Shown here piece by piece: positions 6,778-12,464 of a DNA stretch of 32,667 nucleotides. The notes below the pieces were generated by a model that was not told the DNA's origin, ran no database searches, and saw nothing but the letters and a program-made list of their open reading frames with translations. Each line of letters opens with the position of its first letter. Position 1 is the stretch's first letter. A program made the position numbers and the translations under genes. Source of the stretch: a virus (lineage: Duplodnaviria > Heunggongvirae > Uroviricota > Caudoviricetes); the IMG/VR virus record IMGVR_UViG_2563366964_000008, positions 1-32,667 of that record; one strand, 5' to 3'.

Positions 6778-7575
6778 ATGAATAATCTGATGGTTATTGA
6801 TGGTATTGAAGTTCGTCGTGATGCTTATGGGCGTTACAGCCTGAACGATCTGCACAGGGCTGCTGGTTCTCTGGATAAGCATAAGCCTGCATTCTGGCTC
6901 CGCAATGAGCAAACTGAACGTTTAATAAGCGAGTTGCAGATTTGCAACTCGGTCAATATAGAACCAGTTAACGTTATTCGTGGCGGAAATAACCAGGGGA
7001 CGTATGTCTGCAAAGAACTGGTGTATGCCTATGCAATGTGGATCAGCCCGTCATTCCATCTGAAGGTGATCCGTACTTTCGACATGGTAACCAGTGCACC
7101 GGAAAAATTATCCGGACAGGCTGCTGACAAGATGCAGGCTGGTGTGATTCTGCTGGACTTTATGCGCCGGGAATTAAACCTGTCTAACTCTTCAGTGCTT
7201 GGAGCCTGTCAGAAGCTTCAGGAGGCTGTTGGCTTACCGAATCTGGCACCGCGCTATGCCATTGATGCTCCTGCTGACGCGCCTGATGGCTCAAGTCGCC
7301 CCACGCTGTCGCTGAGTGCACTGCTGAAACAGTATGGTATCCGCCTGACGGCTAATCAGGCATATCACCAGATGGCGAAGCTGGGGATCGTTGAACAACG
7401 CGAACGATACAGCCGTACCGCGATTAACAACATCAAAAAATTCTGGTCGCTGACAGCGAAAGGCTGCATGTTCGGCAAGAACATCACCAGTCCCGCAAAT
7501 CCGCGCGAGACGCAGCCGCATTTCTTCGAATCCCGATTCCCTGAGCTGTTAAAGCTGCTCGATACCGTTCATTGA
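6778..7575 (+). CDS. KilA-N domain protein / putative antirepressor
   Basis: AAGAGGAG Shine-Dalgarno; N-terminal KilA-N-like pattern (YGRYSLNDLHRAAG...KPAFWLRNEQTERLI). Confidence 0.7.
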   Translation: MNNLMVIDGIEVRRDAYGRYSLNDLHRAAGSLDKHKPAFWLRNEQTERLISELQICNSVNIEPVNVIRGGNNQGTYVCKELVYAYAMWISPSFHLKVIRTFDMVTSAPEKLSGQAADKMQAGVILLDFMRRELNLSNSSVLGACQKLQEAVGLPNLAPRYAIDAPADAPDGSSRPTLSLSALLKQYGIRLTANQAYHQMAKLGIVEQRERYSRTAINNIKKFWSLTAKGCMFGKNITSPANPRETQPHFFESRFPELLKLLDTVH

Positions 7576-7576
7576 G

Positions 7577-8572
7577 GTGACCGTGAGAGCATTACTGACC
7601 CCTGAAATTGCCCCGCGTATGGGGATCGTATTGTTCAGGCCAGGTTCAGAGCTGATGCCCCTGTTTATGCAGGGGCGTGTCCTGCTGGAGCCTGAGCCAG
7701 AACGTTATTCATCTTTCGCCAGTGGTGCCGTTCCGGCGGCATCACAACCGCTGGCGGATGATCCTGCCGTTCGCGCCGTGTTCCGCAATGAGGCAGTGAT
7801 CCGTCGTGCTGGTGGCGTGGAATGTCTTGAAAGCTGGTTACTTCGTGAAAAGGGCTGTCAGTGGCCTCATTCCAACTGGCACAGCGAGAACATGACCACA
7901 ATGCGACACGCGCCGGGAGCAATTCGTCTGTGCTGGCACTGCGATAACCAGCTGCGCGATCAGTTCACGGAACGGCTGGAATCAATGGCAACGGATAACT
8001 GTGCCCGCTGGGTGTTGTCTGTTGTGCGTCGGGATCTCGGTTTTGATGACAGTCACGTTGTGACAATGCCGGAACTGTGCTGGTGGCTGATTCGTAATGA
8101 TCTGGCGGATGCCTTACCGGAAAGTGCAGCCCGTAAGGCACTGAGATTACCGAAGCCTGTTGTGCCGTCTGTTACCCGGGAAAGTGACCTTGTGCCTTCG
8201 GTTCCTGCCACCAGCATCATCCAGGATAAGGCGAAAAAGGTGCTGGCGCTGAAAGTGGATCCGGAGTCGCCGGAGTCTTTTATGTTACGCCCAAAACGTC
8301 GCCGCTGGGTTAATGAAAAGTACACGCGCTGGGTTAAGACACAGCCGTGTGCATGTTGTGGAAAGCCTGCTGATGATCCCCACCACTTGATAGGCCACTG
8401 TCAGGGTGGAATGGGTACAAAAGCGCATGACCTCTTTGTATTGCCTTTGTGCAGAAAGCATCACGACGAGTTGCATGCGGACACTGTGGCATTTGAAGAG
8501 AAGTATGGTTCCCAACTGGAGCTAATTTTTCGATTTATCGATCGCGCGCTGGCAATTGGTGTGCTGGCCTGA
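7577..8572 (+). CDS. DUF968-like protein with C-terminal HNH-like Cys/His motif
   Basis: 331-aa ORF; C-terminus PCACCGKPADDPHHLIGHCQGG...LCRKHHDELH; start may be the GTG at 7583 rather than 7577. Confidence 0.55.
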   Translation: MTVRALLTPEIAPRMGIVLFRPGSELMPLFMQGRVLLEPEPERYSSFASGAVPAASQPLADDPAVRAVFRNEAVIRRAGGVECLESWLLREKGCQWPHSNWHSENMTTMRHAPGAIRLCWHCDNQLRDQFTERLESMATDNCARWVLSVVRRDLGFDDSHVVTMPELCWWLIRNDLADALPESAARKALRLPKPVVPSVTRESDLVPSVPATSIIQDKAKKVLALKVDPESPESFMLRPKRRRWVNEKYTRWVKTQPCACCGKPADDPHHLIGHCQGGMGTKAHDLFVLPLCRKHHDELHADTVAFEEKYGSQLELIFRFIDRALAIGVLA

Positions 8573-8589
8573 TTTTGTGGAGAGATTTG

Positions 8590-8937
8590 ATGCGTGATAT
8601 GTACGAGGTTTTGGACCGCTGGGGAGCATGGGCAGCAGCAGATAACAGCGGAGTGGACTGGCAGCCGATCGCGGCAGGCTTCAAGGGGCTTTTACCACAC
8701 GGTAAAAAGTCACGCCTCCAGTGTGATGATGATGAAGGGATCATGATAGACGGTTGTGTGGTGCGGTTGCGTAAATATAAACCAGAAGAATATGAACTGA
8801 TCATTGCTCACTTTGTTATAGGTATCTCACTGCGTTCTATCGCGAAGAAACGCAGATGCTCGGATGGCACAATTAGGAAGGAGCTGCAAACTGCAATGGG
8901 ATTTGTTGAGGGATGCATATCAATTTTGTTTTGGTGA
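8590..8937 (+). CDS. Q: Late-gene antiterminator Q (QuuD-like family)
   Basis: Sequence MRDMYEVLDRWGAWAA...FKGLLP...CDDDEG resembles recalled Q/QuuD proteins; GGAG Shine-Dalgarno before the ATG at 8590 (track start 8575). Confidence 0.7.
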   Translation: MRDMYEVLDRWGAWAAADNSGVDWQPIAAGFKGLLPHGKKSRLQCDDDEGIMIDGCVVRLRKYKPEEYELIIAHFVIGISLRSIAKKRRCSDGTIRKELQTAMGFVEGCISILFW

Positions 8938-8941
8938 TTGC

Positions 8942-8963
8942 AGAAGCCGCTTCAGCGGCTTCT
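8942..8963. terminator. Hairpin (9-bp stem agaagccgc/gcggcttct, loop ttca) between convergent Q and the accessory cassette
   Basis: Perfect inverted repeat read from the sequence; no clear U-run on either side, so possibly a bidirectional terminator or RNA-stability element. Confidence 0.4.
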
Positions 8964-8965
8964 AA

Positions 8966-9448
8966 TTAAGTATTCATGTTTTTCTTCTCTTCAAACAATT
9001 CCTTTATTTTCAATGGAATGAAAGTTGATTGTATGAATGAGAAACATGTTAAAAATGAGATTGAATATGCAATAGTGGTTTTTGTATATTCAAAATAAAT
9101 ACCTGAATGTGTTTTATCCTTGGATAAAAGATAAAATACAAATATTAATGCAAGTGTAATTATATACATCAAGAATAGAGTATAGCTTTTTACAAAGCGC
9201 ATATAAAATCGAGTGCTCTGGTTGGCTTTGTCTAATGCATTAAGTGATTTCGAAATTGAGGAGTTCTCACCAGACATAGTAATGACTAGCAATAAAAAAC
9301 CGGATAGGATTGAGAAAACATTTGCAACAAGATTTAATGCGTCATTGTTATTTGTTAAGCTGTTTGTGAGATATTTTGAGAAAAAGAAGGAGGCTAGGAA
9401 GTTTCCTGTGGTAATTATAATTCCCGTCCAGTTATAATCTTTAAACAT
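8966..9448 (-). CDS. Hypothetical membrane protein with four hydrophobic segments, second gene of the accessory cassette
   Basis: 160-aa ORF; hydrophobic stretches WTGIIITTGNFLASFFF, LVANVFSILSGFLLLVITM, YTLFLMYIITLALIFVFYLL, IAYSISFLTCFSFIQSTFIPL; GGGGAGG Shine-Dalgarno; visibly AT-rich DNA. Confidence 0.7.
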   Translation of the reverse strand: MFKDYNWTGIIITTGNFLASFFFSKYLTNSLTNNNDALNLVANVFSILSGFLLLVITMSGENSSISKSLNALDKANQSTRFYMRFVKSYTLFLMYIITLALIFVFYLLSKDKTHSGIYFEYTKTTIAYSISFLTCFSFIQSTFIPLKIKELFEEKKNMNT

Positions 9449-9472
9449 ATGGCCTCCCCGTTTTTAAGTATA

Positions 9473-10294
9473 TTATAACTCATTTGTGACAAAATGCTCT
9501 AAAATTTCATGAGCATATTTGCTGGAAATTGTTTGCGAGCCGTATGGTAACGTGTAGTAAATCTTTGTAAGTTTCATGTCATCGCTAGTGATTTTCTCTC
9601 CTTTTTTAGTTTCAAAGTAAAAGTCACTGTTTAAATCAGATATCCAAGGCGTCGGATTGTTTTCAATTGATGCAGCAACGGCAGGGTTTCCTCTGGCATC
9701 GATAGTAAAATGGCCACTTATTCCTGTTTGTTTTAATTTTGGCTCTTTTTTTACAAACACAGATAAGAAACTAGGCTTGTTAACAAAATCTGATTCATGC
9801 ACGTTGAAATTCACATGTACAGCGCGCAAACCATCATCTTTGACTTTTTGGATTACATTTTTCTTTAAGATAGCTGACGGTATAATATCTATGCCATAGC
9901 ATTTGAAGATTTTTGCTATTTTGACTTCACTCCAGTTAGTGGATATTTGAAGGAGTGAAGCAATTTGATTATCCTTAACCATAAAGAAGGCATGTAAATT
10001 GTCAAAATTTTCAACATCTAACAAATCTTTAGTGTTAGGTTTATTTGGGGTGATCGACACTTCTTCTTTCGGATTGTATAAAGAAAAATGTAAGTAATGG
10101 ATATTACCTTTAGTGCTAAATTCTTTTAATTTTAAATGCCTGTTAGTTGATAACTGGATTATGGAACCCTGTACAAATTTATTATTTGTTGATATTTGCT
10201 GAAATAAATTACCCTTCCCGTCAAGGTTCACATTAAAAGCCCTAACTTGACATTTCTTTGTTAAATTGTTTTTTTTGGTATTAGAAAAGTTCAT
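9473..10294 (-). CDS. Hypothetical 273-aa soluble protein, first gene of the accessory cassette
   Basis: ORF with AAGGGA Shine-Dalgarno; Lys/Asn-rich, no hydrophobic segments, no motif I recognise; 24-nt gap to the downstream membrane-protein gene. Confidence 0.7.
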   Translation of the reverse strand: MNFSNTKKNNLTKKCQVRAFNVNLDGKGNLFQQISTNNKFVQGSIIQLSTNRHLKLKEFSTKGNIHYLHFSLYNPKEEVSITPNKPNTKDLLDVENFDNLHAFFMVKDNQIASLLQISTNWSEVKIAKIFKCYGIDIIPSAILKKNVIQKVKDDGLRAVHVNFNVHESDFVNKPSFLSVFVKKEPKLKQTGISGHFTIDARGNPAVAASIENNPTPWISDLNSDFYFETKKGEKITSDDMKLTKIYYTLPYGSQTISSKYAHEILEHFVTNEL

Positions 10295-10322
10295 AGTTTT
10301 CCCTTATTCGCTGTGTGTCCTT

Positions 10323-10351
10323 ATTGTAAAAAAAAACTAACGCGTACGCAA
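10323..10351 (-). promoter_or_regulatory. Candidate sigma70 promoter for the accessory cassette: -35 TTGCGT, 17-bp spacer, -10 TACAAT on the minus strand
   Basis: Minus-strand -35 at 10346..10351 and -10 at 10323..10328, about 30 nt upstream of the 273-aa gene start. Confidence 0.5.
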
Positions 10352-10396
10352 AAACTATTGTATCGTGTTAAGAGTGGTTACTTCGCCACACAACTT

Positions 10397-10420
10397 AAAC
10401 CCGCCGTCGAGCGGGTTTTG
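10397..10420 (+). terminator. Stem-loop with U-run (aaacccgc/gcgggttt, then tttg); possible tR'-like terminator in the late leader
   Basis: 8-bp stem, 6-nt loop, followed by a T-run on the plus strand, located upstream of the holin gene. Confidence 0.4.
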
Positions 10421-10569
10421 TCATTTCTAGGCCTTGGTATTCGTTGGGCTTGGTCTATCTGGTACTTAGCCATTGGCTCGACTTCTTTTACGTTTCCGCT
10501 TCTGATTTGCGGTACATGATGTTCCCTCAATTTGCACCTCCTGTATTGCGAGGTGAGAGATAACTACAA

Positions 10570-10896
10570 ATGCCTCATAACCCAAATACCTGGCTGGAGT
10601 TGGTCCAGAGCTGGTGGCGTGGAGACACACCGCTGGGCGCAGTGATTATGTCGATTGTTATGGCTGGTTTACGTATCGCCTATTTTGGCGGTGGTGGCGG
10701 CTGGAAGCGAAAAACACTCGAAATTCTACTCTGTGGCGCTCTGACGCTGACTTTTGCATCCGCTCTTGAGTATGTCGGATGGCCTAAATCACTATCTGTT
10801 GCCATTGGTGGTGGGGTGGGGCTGATCGGTGTCGATGCTATTCGTGGGGCTGCAATGCGAGTAATCGGTAACAAATTTGGTGGCTCTAAGGAGTAA
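10570..10896 (+). CDS. S: Holin (lambda S-like class, multiple hydrophobic segments)
   Basis: 108-aa ORF immediately upstream of the endolysin; hydrophobic segments and a Gly-rich motif (AYFGGGGGW); charged C-terminus. Confidence 0.8.
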   Translation: MPHNPNTWLELVQSWWRGDTPLGAVIMSIVMAGLRIAYFGGGGGWKRKTLEILLCGALTLTFASALEYVGWPKSLSVAIGGGVGLIGVDAIRGAAMRVIGNKFGGSKE

Positions 10897-10899
10897 TTT

Positions 10900-11376
10900 A
10901 TGCAGGTACTAAATTCCCAGCGTAAAGCTTTCCTTGATATGGTGGCTTGGTCAGAAGGAACGGATAACGGGCGACAACCGACACGTAACCACGGTTATGA
11001 TGTTATTGTCGGTGGAGAACTCTTCACTGATTACTCCGATCACCCTCGCAAGCTTGTCACGCTAAACCCGAAACTCAAATCAACAGCTGCAGGCCGTTAT
11101 CAACTTCTTTCGCGCTGGTGGGATGCTTACCGCAAGCAGTTAGGGCTGACAGACTTCTCTCCTAAAAGCCAGGATGCTGTTGCATTACAGCAGATTAAAG
11201 AGCGTGGCGCTTTACCGATGATTGATCGCGGCGATATTCGTCAGGCTATCGATCGTTGCAGCAATATCTGGGCGTCGTTACCTGGTGCAGGTTACGGTCA
11301 GTATGAACATAAAATCGGTGACCTGATTTCCCGGTTTAAAGAGGCTGGTGGGGTGGTAAATGAAGTTGAGCTATAA
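10900..11376 (+). CDS. R: Endolysin, lambda R-type lytic transglycosylase
   Basis: 158-aa protein near-identical, as recalled, to lambda R (QRKAFLDMVAWSEGTDNGRQPTRNHGYDVIVGGELFTDYSDHPRK...). Confidence 0.95.
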   Translation: MQVLNSQRKAFLDMVAWSEGTDNGRQPTRNHGYDVIVGGELFTDYSDHPRKLVTLNPKLKSTAAGRYQLLSRWWDAYRKQLGLTDFSPKSQDAVALQQIKERGALPMIDRGDIRQAIDRCSNIWASLPGAGYGQYEHKIGDLISRFKEAGGVVNEVEL

Positions 11377-11954: not shown

Positions 11955-12464
11955 ATGGAAAGGTTTATAAAATCAATTGAATCTTCAATTGAAAGTGAGA
12001 ATTGGTTAGCGGCATTGTTTATGGCTCTTGCTATGCCTGATATTTGCAGGAGCGTTGAACGTCCCAAAATAGGTAAGGGTGAAACAGGGAAATGGTATAA
12101 AGATTGGGTTTCTCGTTATCTTGAAAATAAATATACATCCGGTACACATGAACAGTGTCGATTTTATGCGGATGATTTTTGGCTGTATCGTTGTTCTTGT
12201 TTACATGCTGGACAGGATCCAGAGAACAGGAAAAGAATGATGCAGTTTAATTTTACACCACCACCTAGGCCAAATTGCCAAGTGCATTTAAATCACTTAA
12301 ATGGCAAACTTCAGTTGCAAATAGATGTGTTTTGTCGAGATATGATTGAGGCAGTCAATCAATGGCGTACTGAGGTCGAGGATACGCCAGAAATTAAGGC
12401 TCGTATGGATTCTCTGATAAATATATCATTAGCATCTTTTGGAACATTCATTGTATTTGGTTAA
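11955..12464 (+). CDS. Hypothetical 169-aa protein in an AT-rich island between the lysis and packaging modules (accessory gene candidate)
   Basis: ORF with AAGGTGA Shine-Dalgarno; Cys-containing (about six Cys); flanked by AT-rich non-coding DNA; no family recognised. Confidence 0.6.
   Translation: MERFIKSIESSIESENWLAALFMALAMPDICRSVERPKIGKGETGKWYKDWVSRYLENKYTSGTHEQCRFYADDFWLYRCSCLHAGQDPENRKRMMQFNFTPPPRPNCQVHLNHLNGKLQLQIDVFCRDMIEAVNQWRTEVEDTPEIKARMDSLINISLASFGTFIVFG

Follow-up and report, generated by a model that had tools for sequence, protein, structure and literature searches.

An antisense gene pair between Q and the lysis genes of a lambdoid prophage, a probable Rex-type phage-exclusion module

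The DNA analysed here (IMG/VR virus record IMGVR_UViG_2563366964_000008, positions 1 to 32,667; hereafter the window, 32,667 nt in full) is an SfII/e14-like lambdoid prophage. Between its Q antiterminator gene and its lysis genes it carries a cassette of two AT-rich genes on the minus strand, termed A and B in this work. We consider, with a probability of roughly 0.6, that this cassette is a Rex-type two-component phage-exclusion (abortive-infection) module travelling as prophage cargo, a function that we infer from the genes and their relatives. The predicted fold of A, the predicted four-helix topology of B, the occupancy of the lambda rexAB slot by distant family members and the defence-type cargo found in the same slot of sister phages all point in this direction. 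A first-pass annotation, made from the sequence alone, had proposed a candidate RexAB-like module and stands on these points; on the side of sequence homology it does not, since none is detectable between the pair and RexAB. The relation of A-B to Rex is one of fold, architecture and synteny only, and common ancestry of the two is plausible.

The mechanism we propose would run as follows. In a lysogen, a sigma-70 promoter with its -35 hexamer in a conserved Q-linked block would transcribe A and B as one mRNA ending at a hairpin after B. The B protein would be inserted in the inner membrane with four helices in an N-in/C-in arrangement and would stay inactive, and A, basic and probably dimeric with a DNA-binding fold of the RexA/RdgC type, would sense infection by another phage, triggered by a phage protein or else by intermediates of replication or recombination. 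A would then activate B, probably via the conserved cytoplasmic loop between the second and third transmembrane (TM) helices of B, and B would dissipate the membrane potential, whereupon ATP would fall, growth would stop and the infecting phage would fail to multiply. Expression, sensing, DNA binding, the interaction of A with B, channel activity and protection are carried over in this scheme from the Rex paradigm (PMC12894663).

The A-B gene pair and its genomic contexts

Gene A (9473..10294, minus strand) encodes a soluble, basic protein of 273 aa (isoelectric point, pI, 9.24) with a predicted RexA/RdgC-type fold, which is the proposed sensor or activator. Gene B (8966..9448, minus strand) encodes a 160 aa protein, predicted to reside in the inner membrane with four TM helices and a C-terminal amphipathic helix, and is the proposed membrane effector. 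The open reading frames (ORFs) lie exactly where the first-pass annotation had placed them, co-oriented and 24 nt apart. Their spacer (9449..9472, minus strand) holds a GGGGAGG Shine-Dalgarno sequence as the ribosome-binding site for B, which implies one bicistronic A-B mRNA, and a GGAGG-type motif is retained in the corresponding spacers (14-29 nt) of most of 12 loci compared. The cassette is AT-richer than the Q and holin flanks, as had been claimed, with a guanine-plus-cytosine (GC) content of 0.30-0.35 over 8800-10400 against 0.50-0.57 in the flanks (about 31% for the pair as a whole, 0.325 for gene A and 0.296 for gene B). Measured against an 87%-identical E. coli copy, A has a ratio of nonsynonymous to synonymous substitution rates (dN/dS) of 0.079, and B one of 0.064. 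Homologues fall into 59 clusters for A and 136 for B, all from Enterobacterales and all labelled hypothetical. Because of these ratios and homologue clusters, A and B are real genes under strong purifying selection and not chance ORFs. A 99.9%-identical copy of the window locus is present in E. coli NT1F25, adjoining tRNA-Thr/proA. The cassette itself is rare: among 5,426 complete E. coli genomes about 10 carry it, and a genome scan with the close alignment detected it in 5 of 185,579 species-representative genomes.

Pairing of the genes is strict, with A followed by B, adjacent and co-oriented, in all 18 A-family loci examined (12 close and 6 distant). Concerning the close loci, from E. coli, Citrobacter, Enterobacter, Pseudocitrobacter, Raoultella, Providencia, Lonsdalea and others, a B homologue follows A after 14-29 nt in 12/12, and a PF06530-type Q flanks the pair in every one. 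For the distant A relatives (about 20-31% identity) the next ORF is a B homologue in 6/6, with B-profile E-values of 1e-13 to 1e-41; these six are all the distant A relatives whose contigs were readable. Source annotation leaves the B homologue uncalled in three of the close loci (L006-L008, 10848-11339) and at 6895-7383 of the distant locus L017, and one uncalled distant B homologue is a GTG-start ORF. In such cases gene-neighbourhood surveys would count A as an orphan.

Synteny study of the distant members led to the lambda immunity region. Two of the distant pairs (L016 and L017) are located directly downstream of a cI-type repressor, and in L016, a lambda-like prophage, the gene order is cro-cI-A'-B'-N-sieB-ral-cIII-kil-gam. 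Among isolated phages, the lambdoid PhiR11_1 shares this order up to ral, and 2G7b encodes the same A'; the isolated PhiR phages are reportedly those of Brenes and Laub from 2025. In L016 and PhiR11_1 the A'-B' position is the exact rexA-rexB slot of lambda. This cI-linked version occurs in 7 of 5,426 E. coli genomes. Other distant members adjoin an integrase, belong to a P2-like element or stand on a chromosome by a gene of the B12-dependent methionine-synthase type. From these locus comparisons, the A-B module therefore replaces rexAB in some lambdoid phages and takes a Q-proximal slot in others. A holin or antiholin role for B was considered and rejected, as B is antisense to the lysis genes and is also found beside cI.

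Predicted fold of A and membrane topology of B

The AlphaFold (AF2) model of A has a mean predicted local distance difference test score (pLDDT) of 81 and a predicted TM-score (pTM) of 0.74. Structure search with this model gave RexA as the top structural match, and the whole list of neighbours agrees with that of RexA. As the structural relatives named for RexA itself are RdgC, an epimerase, IML3 and CHL4 (PMC11077077), A falls within RexA's own structural neighbourhood. The globular part of the model comprises residues 1-135 and 237-273, with seven strands and flanking helices; in DSSP order there are six strands in 13-115, a strand at 243-248 and a helix at 258-271 that returns to the first domain. 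An insert at about 139-229, with four strands and four helices, interrupts it. RexA has a split globular domain (1-139 and 248-279) and an inserted four-strand/four-helix dimerisation domain at 143-234 (PMC11077077). The split domain of the RexA/RdgC superfamily is thus seen in A as counted from the prediction, not from a domain-by-domain superposition, and the predicted fold and domain arrangement of A are those of RexA. Both proteins are basic, with a pI of 9.24 for A and 8.61 for RexA.

At the sequence level, nothing above noise was obtained for A in Pfam (E ≤ 1), NCBIfam and PADLOC, nor for B in the same three collections, in keeping with the first-pass statement that neither protein shows a recognisable family motif. 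A belongs to phrog_23561 of PHROGs, a family of unknown function, and an exhaustive profile search of 1.84 billion representative proteins returned just 23 relatives of A, none with a Pfam or PADLOC assignment. Pfam scanning of 10 distant A members gave no RexA match at E ≤ 0.1. A has no Pfam RdgC match either and does not stand alone, being always paired with B and mostly on prophages. Homology of both proteins to a characterised non-defence family, which the first-pass annotation had named as grounds for dropping its proposal, was found in none of the Pfam, NCBIfam, PADLOC and profile searches.

The likeness of A to RexA could in principle reflect no more than a widespread RdgC/TBP-like fold, in which case the pair might be a non-defence moron, that is, cargo for host fitness or membrane physiology such as stress tolerance or colonisation. 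This we consider improbable. It is RexA, rather than a generic member of the fold, that tops the structural matches, and the neighbour list is RexA's; moreover, an obligate four-TM partner, the shared order of the genes, protein sizes of 273 and 160 aa (279 and 144 aa in lambda) and the occupancy of the rexAB slot would together make a striking coincidence.

Concerning B, the AF2 model (pLDDT 81) has helices at 7-32, 35-63, 71-110, 117-141 and 143-159, the last being the C-terminal amphipathic helix. TM1 and TM4 of the window protein are just moderately hydrophobic (Kyte-Doolittle, KD, 1.14 and 1.47), and four hydropathy peaks are present in all six divergent B partners; the four hydrophobic segments that had been read from the sequence are therefore recovered as four AF2 TM helices and four hydropathy peaks. 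Lysine and arginine cluster at the C-terminus and in the loop joining TM2 to TM3, with a further cluster at the N-terminus of the divergent relatives, a distribution that predicts an N-in/C-in topology with a cytoplasmic central TM2-TM3 loop. The same N-in/C-in arrangement with a cytoplasmic central loop has been published for RexB and Sbash gp31, and substitutions in the equivalent loop of Sbash gp31 abolish defence (PMC6426596). Within the B family the TM2 motif DALNLVAN.F..L.GFLLLVIT is invariant, its polar part being D36-A-L-N-L-V-A-N43, and so are Q77, F81, R84 and F85 of the central loop. Mean column identity is 73% for A and B alike. Pfam RexB did not match B or its six divergent partners at E ≤ 1. 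Among viral structural models, the third-best match of B is a 165 aa Sbash protein (TM-score = 0.53, E-value = 0.18), which is non-significant and not confirmed as gp31.

These features bear on which of the two proteins acts. In the Butters system it is the cytosolic protein that acts as effector, and defence does not need the membrane protein (PMC12894663), and by an analogous inversion A could be a toxic or antiviral effector on DNA, which B sequesters or silences until infection. The basic character of A, its predicted DNA-binding-type fold shared with RdgC and the state of the locus in E. coli WEM25, where B is intact and A is truncated by an insertion sequence (IS) element, would suit such a scheme. 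On the other hand, B is at least as conserved as A (73% mean column identity for both; dN/dS = 0.064 for B), its invariant polar TM2 motif is more in line with an active channel or effector than with a passive anchor, and in 4/5 described Rex-like systems the effector is the membrane protein (PMC12894663). An effector role for A with B as its silencer is accordingly given little chance here, and B is kept as the proposed effector of the Rex-type module.

Prophage-encoded injection blockers are common, for example SieA/SieB and Imm. A predicted inner-membrane protein together with a protein of DNA-binding-type fold could likewise be imagined as an envelope-level superinfection exclusion system, in which B and a recruited, DNA-binding A would stop or trap phage DNA as it is injected and would neither kill nor arrest the cell, and sieB does adjoin the pair in the cI-slot version. 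Family scans gave no similarity of A or B to the known Sie, Imm and Cor families, and architecture and fold point to Rex, whose described mode is depolarisation and not injection block (PMC12894663). Exclusion at the envelope is considered very improbable for these reasons, and depolarisation in the Rex manner is retained as the proposed mode.

Candidate promoter, conserved block and the antisense slot beside Q

Downstream of the cassette, the perfect 9-bp hairpin reported by the first-pass annotation (8942..8963, minus strand; 4-nt loop) was confirmed. It is located 3 nt past the B stop, between the convergent B and Q genes, and its RNA fold of -16.6 kcal/mol (z = -4.9) was equalled by 0/200 shuffles. 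The core GCCGC-N4-GCGGC is found at the B stop in 7/12 loci, with differing loops and stem extensions. Lacking a U-tract behind it on the cassette strand, the hairpin does not qualify as a canonical intrinsic terminator, and we regard it as a candidate 3'-end stabiliser or weak bidirectional terminator.

Upstream of A, a candidate sigma-70 promoter is located at 10323..10351 on the minus strand (-35 TTGCGT at 10351-10346, 17-bp spacer, -10 TACAAT at 10328-10323), followed by the Shine-Dalgarno sequence AAGGGA of A (10305-10300, minus strand). Position and hexamers are as first described, whereas the wording 'near-consensus' is too strong: the match is 8/12 (3/6 at -35 and 5/6 at -10) and falls below the threshold of the promoter scanner. 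Conservation speaks for the element nonetheless. In 11 A-B loci, which represent at least 8 genera, the -35 context TTTTGCGTACGCGTTAG, which holds TTGCGT, is invariant, and a TAnAAT hexamer stands 17 bp downstream of it in 10/11; the 5' untranslated region and the sequence farther upstream diverge among the same loci. This conserved footprint supports a real promoter for the cassette. It is not strictly the cassette's own, as had been assumed, because the -35 is also invariant in loci with other cargo and so belongs to backbone DNA shared among these phages. With the ATG of A just 28 nt from the conserved block, any promoter for A must use backbone sequence.

The conserved Q-linked block itself extends over 10331..10420 (plus strand) and bounds the cassette on the right. 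It contains the palindromes ACGCGT and GCGTACGC and a terminator-like hairpin of the late strand at 10397-10418 with a T-run. In other genomes, sequence that matches the cassette region starts at window position 10323, and the block to the right of that position is common to about 980 E. coli genomes, to SfII and to some Stx2a phages. In 10 loci with different cargo the pattern CTAACGCGTACGCAAAA...GTTAAGAGTGGTTACTTCGCCACACA.CTTAAACCCGCCG...CGGG plus T-run is nearly invariant, and this conservation persists despite differing downstream genes and two holin types; across genera the late-strand hairpin keeps its structure and T-run while its sequence varies. Stx2a_1447 has Q followed by antisense cargo, the block, a methylase gene, tRNAs and stx2A. 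From its position, its terminator and this arrangement in Stx2a_1447, the block is inferred to be a Q-linked late leader with a putative late promoter, qut site and first terminator. The promoter scanner found no late-strand promoter in the block, and by eye there was no convincing -35 but a conserved TATnnT hexamer after GCAAAA on the late strand. Searching Rfam over 8400-11000 found no RNA family.

Within the block (10331-10420) there is also an invariant element, AACGCGTACGCAAAA, in which the palindromes ACGCGT and GCGTACGC overlap and which is kept across genera and cargoes. Since it is palindromic and conserved far more strictly than a -35 hexamer requires, it may in addition be a protein-binding site, for instance an operator, or an element bound by Q, that the divergent promoters of cargo and late genes have in common. 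A 68 aa GTG-start ORF at 10313-10519 (plus strand) spans the leader block and is annotated as a hypothetical protein in mEp460_4F5, 569R4, PhiR40_1 and PhiR55_1; because the terminator is inside it, it is probably not a gene.

The closeness of the cassette to Q raises the question of a role in the prophage's own development. RexA is known to tilt the lambda switch in favour of lysis, and effects of RexB on protease and toxin-antitoxin pathways have been reported. RexA moreover acts on the bistable switch independently of RexB (PMC11077077). By analogy, A and B could tune induction, late-gene timing or Q levels, for example by antisense read-through into Q, which is conceivable because the cassette is convergent with Q and its hairpin has no U-tract; the overlap of the cassette promoter with the invariant palindromic element of the Q-linked block is a further point in favour. 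The pair is also found at unrelated positions, however, namely after cI, by an integrase, in a P2-like element and on the chromosome, which argues for a self-contained module, and sister phages hold unrelated defence-type cargo in the slot, so that the position does not imply a Q-specific role. A developmental function is quite unlikely on this balance, and we continue with the cassette as exclusion cargo.

The slot that the cassette occupies is bordered on the left by the Q antiterminator gene (8590..8937, plus strand; PF06530, E-value = 1.5e-45, and RefSeq annotation of the 99.9%-identical locus), convergent with the cassette, and the first late lysis gene to its right is a lambda-family holin (10570..10896, plus strand; ORF and annotation). 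The antisense location between Q and the lysis genes given by the first-pass annotation is hereby confirmed. Between PF06530-type Q and the block, each of 10 other loci carries a different cassette, always antisense to the late genes. SfII has SfII_50/49, matching PADLOC PDC-M53 A/B; EcPF16 has a DUF262 protein and a HEPN-like nuclease (PADLOC NsnA and PD-T4-2_A); WP8-S18-CRE-02 has a KAP NTPase (PADLOC PDC-S20, PifA-like); and UMNK88 has a TIR and a caspase protein (PADLOC ThsB-like and caspase). No PADLOC match was found for the SDH/Clp-fold protease of 914033, the TIGR04255 protein and two hypotheticals of 98197, the 'nucleoid-associated protein' and hypothetical of P19_598 and the single 339 aa hypothetical of VTB97022v, nor for the larger of the two hypotheticals of Stx2a_1447, the only one of them scanned; the three hypotheticals of FORC_028 were left out of the PADLOC scan. 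In total, 4/11 slot occupants, the window included, match defence models, a share comparable to the known systems in 13/63 instances of the P2 hotspot (P2/P4 hotspots; Rousset et al., 2022; Vassallo et al., 2022).

The comparison of this junction in related prophages, which the first-pass annotation had recommended, thus shows a slot holding known and candidate defence-model cassettes. Its description as a classic cargo site is borne out by the variable cargo of the 10 other loci, and the equivalence with stx is not, stx lying inside the late unit; the present slot appears to lie upstream of the late transcription unit, between Q and its leader. Because just 4/11 of the sampled cargoes are recognisable, this variable antisense slot, which some 1,000 or more E. 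coli genomes possess, offers further candidate systems at little cost. A limited literature search found no paper describing it.

A wider reading is conceivable, in which the slot is an undescribed defence hotspot, a backbone promoter makes cargo and late expression mutually exclusive as a self-immunity switch, and Rex is a fold superfamily; taken jointly, these are rather unlikely. If they held, the slot would be shared by the Q(PF06530)-type lambdoid phages, among them SfII-like, e14-like and some Stx2a phages, and every cargo promoter would have as its -35 the invariant palindrome TTGCGTACGC of the backbone, which overlaps the region of the late promoter. Cargo expression and occupancy of the late promoter or by Q would then exclude each other, and this exclusion, together with convergent read-through from Q, would silence the prophage's own abortive-infection genes upon induction. 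Rex, for its part, would be a superfamily at the level of fold, moving between the cI slot and the Q slot.

Some further observations concern the slot and its surroundings. In Stx2a_1447 (L034) the cargo at 890-2453 and the block at 2501-2582 are directly upstream of the methylase/tRNA/stx2 region, and in some Stx2a-converting phages the cargo slot therefore abuts the region controlling Shiga-toxin expression. The UMNK88 cargo (L028, 2054-3431) is a compact pair of a TIR protein (133 aa) and a caspase-family protein (321 aa), both matching PADLOC models. IS5-family insertions have struck the A-B locus twice. In the pig isolates E. coli Res13-Lact-EB12-05 (L032, 2188-3168) and PEB14-36 (the near-identical H16), IS5 is inserted between the promoter block and the holin, with A and B intact, and probably severs the late genes from their leader. 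In E. coli WEM25 (L033, 3688-4668), ISKpn26 truncates the 5' end of A and B is intact; the remaining prophage is lost and ykgE follows. Finally, just past the lysis genes of the window, an ORF of 169 aa at 11955-12464 (plus strand; GC 0.33-0.40) has no Pfam or PADLOC match. The equivalents in related prophages are a DUF6236 protein, iss/bor and hypotheticals, and since other genes stand there, the position may be a second cargo slot.

Weighing of the Rex assignment and comparison with known systems

Several results weigh against a Rex-type module and are given together here. The check for Rex relatives by profile methods was negative throughout, with all comparisons of A and B non-significant (probability < 1%). 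Specifically, hhalign of the A family, distant members included, with lambda RexA or a 24-sequence RexA profile gave a probability of 0.2-0.3%, and of the B family with RexB 0.3%; Pfam RexA and RexB matched no member of the A or B family, the lambda controls scoring 1e-97 and 8.5e-92; and a PDB profile search with A did not retrieve 8TWQ (RexA). Weak A-RexA profile alignments are collinear with the structural equivalence and are not counted as evidence. A and B have no detectable sequence homology to RexA and RexB. PADLOC-DB v2, which includes KwaA and KwaB of Kiwa, gave no match for A, B and 10 distant A members. With 35 sequences, the alignment behind the predicted model of A is shallow. When viral models were searched with Foldseek, lambda RexA was not among the top 50 for A, its best matches there being uncharacterised phage proteins and one RdgC-like protein, and the fold search of B against viral models gave nothing significant; four-helix membrane proteins are in any case generic. 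As to location, the window pair is between Q and the holin and not beside cI, and because some half of the other cargoes in the slot are without a match to any PADLOC defence model, guilt by association from slot neighbours is moderate only. Location by the repressor, for its part, is not universal among accepted Rex-like systems, as Sbash and Butters illustrate (PMC11077077).

Kiwa was tried as another candidate and rejected, given that no KwaA or KwaB model matched and the gene order is reversed. In Kiwa the membrane gene precedes the soluble one.

Rex, found about 70 years ago, was the earliest abortive-infection system to be discovered. Five Rex-like systems were described as of 2026 (PMC12894663). 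If the assignment is true, a sequence-distinct RexA-fold family in E. coli and other Enterobacterales would widen the comparative basis for the essential features of Rex, candidates for which are the invariant polar TM2 motif of B and the residues of its central loop. Its presence in the viable isolated lambdoid phages PhiR11_1 and 2G7b, in place of rexAB, makes isogenic experiments in E. coli K-12 feasible. Current defence-system censuses miss the A-B family, as neither Pfam nor PADLOC recognises A or B. In a limited literature search, no description was found of the A and B proteins, of phrog_23561 or of a Rex-like status of the family.

RdgC (2OWL) is a stand-alone chromosomal protein without a membrane partner, unlike A, which is always paired with B. 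Apart from this single-protein relative, the actinobacteriophage pairs Sbash gp30/gp31, CarolAnn gp44/gp43 and Butters gp30/gp31 resemble A-B in combining a cytoplasmic with a four-TM protein. They are expressed from the prophage and are in some cases displaced from the repressor gene (PMC11077077). They differ in having hosts of another phylum and in their soluble proteins of 337-372 aa, which share a DUF4747 motif with RexA (PMC6426596); A has no such match. RexABpp of the P. putida prophage P1 (PP_5643/PP_5644), the source of the architecture-level definition of RexAB-type systems used for comparison, differs from the window pair on several counts: RexApp was found by HHpred (98%) where profile comparisons of A were negative, the pair is located near a cI-like repressor, and its defence, DNA binding and B-dependent membrane damage are proven experimentally (PMC12894663). 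Under that definition A-B shows the soluble-then-membrane gene order and, by prediction, a four-TM partner with cytoplasmic termini and loop.

As a genomic site, the Q-adjacent slot is like the P2/P4 hotspots and the stx moron site in being a fixed slot with conserved borders and interchangeable, mostly uncharacterised cargo, a minority of it known defence. Unlike the P2/P4 hotspots, it belongs to lambdoid phages of the SfII/e14/Stx type and is set between Q and the leader block; unlike the stx site, where stx is farther downstream inside the late transcription unit, its cargo is always antisense.

Lambda RexAB (PF15969/PF15968; 8TWQ) remains the closest comparison. Both systems consist of a soluble gene of about 275 aa followed by a four-TM gene of about 150 aa, co-oriented and AT-rich relative to the phage, with an intergenic gap of 24 nt here and 15 nt in lambda; the predicted fold and split domains of A match RexA, the predicted topology of B is that published for RexB, and distant A-B members occupy the identical cI-rexA-rexB-N slot. 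They differ in that A and B have no detectable sequence or profile similarity to RexA and RexB, in that the window pair stands outside the immunity region, antisense between Q and the late leader, and in that it is probably driven by a sigma-70 promoter and not by pRM. Taken together, A-B is most likely a sequence family missed by the RexA, RexB and PADLOC models, with Rex-type architecture and predicted fold, established in a new genomic niche.

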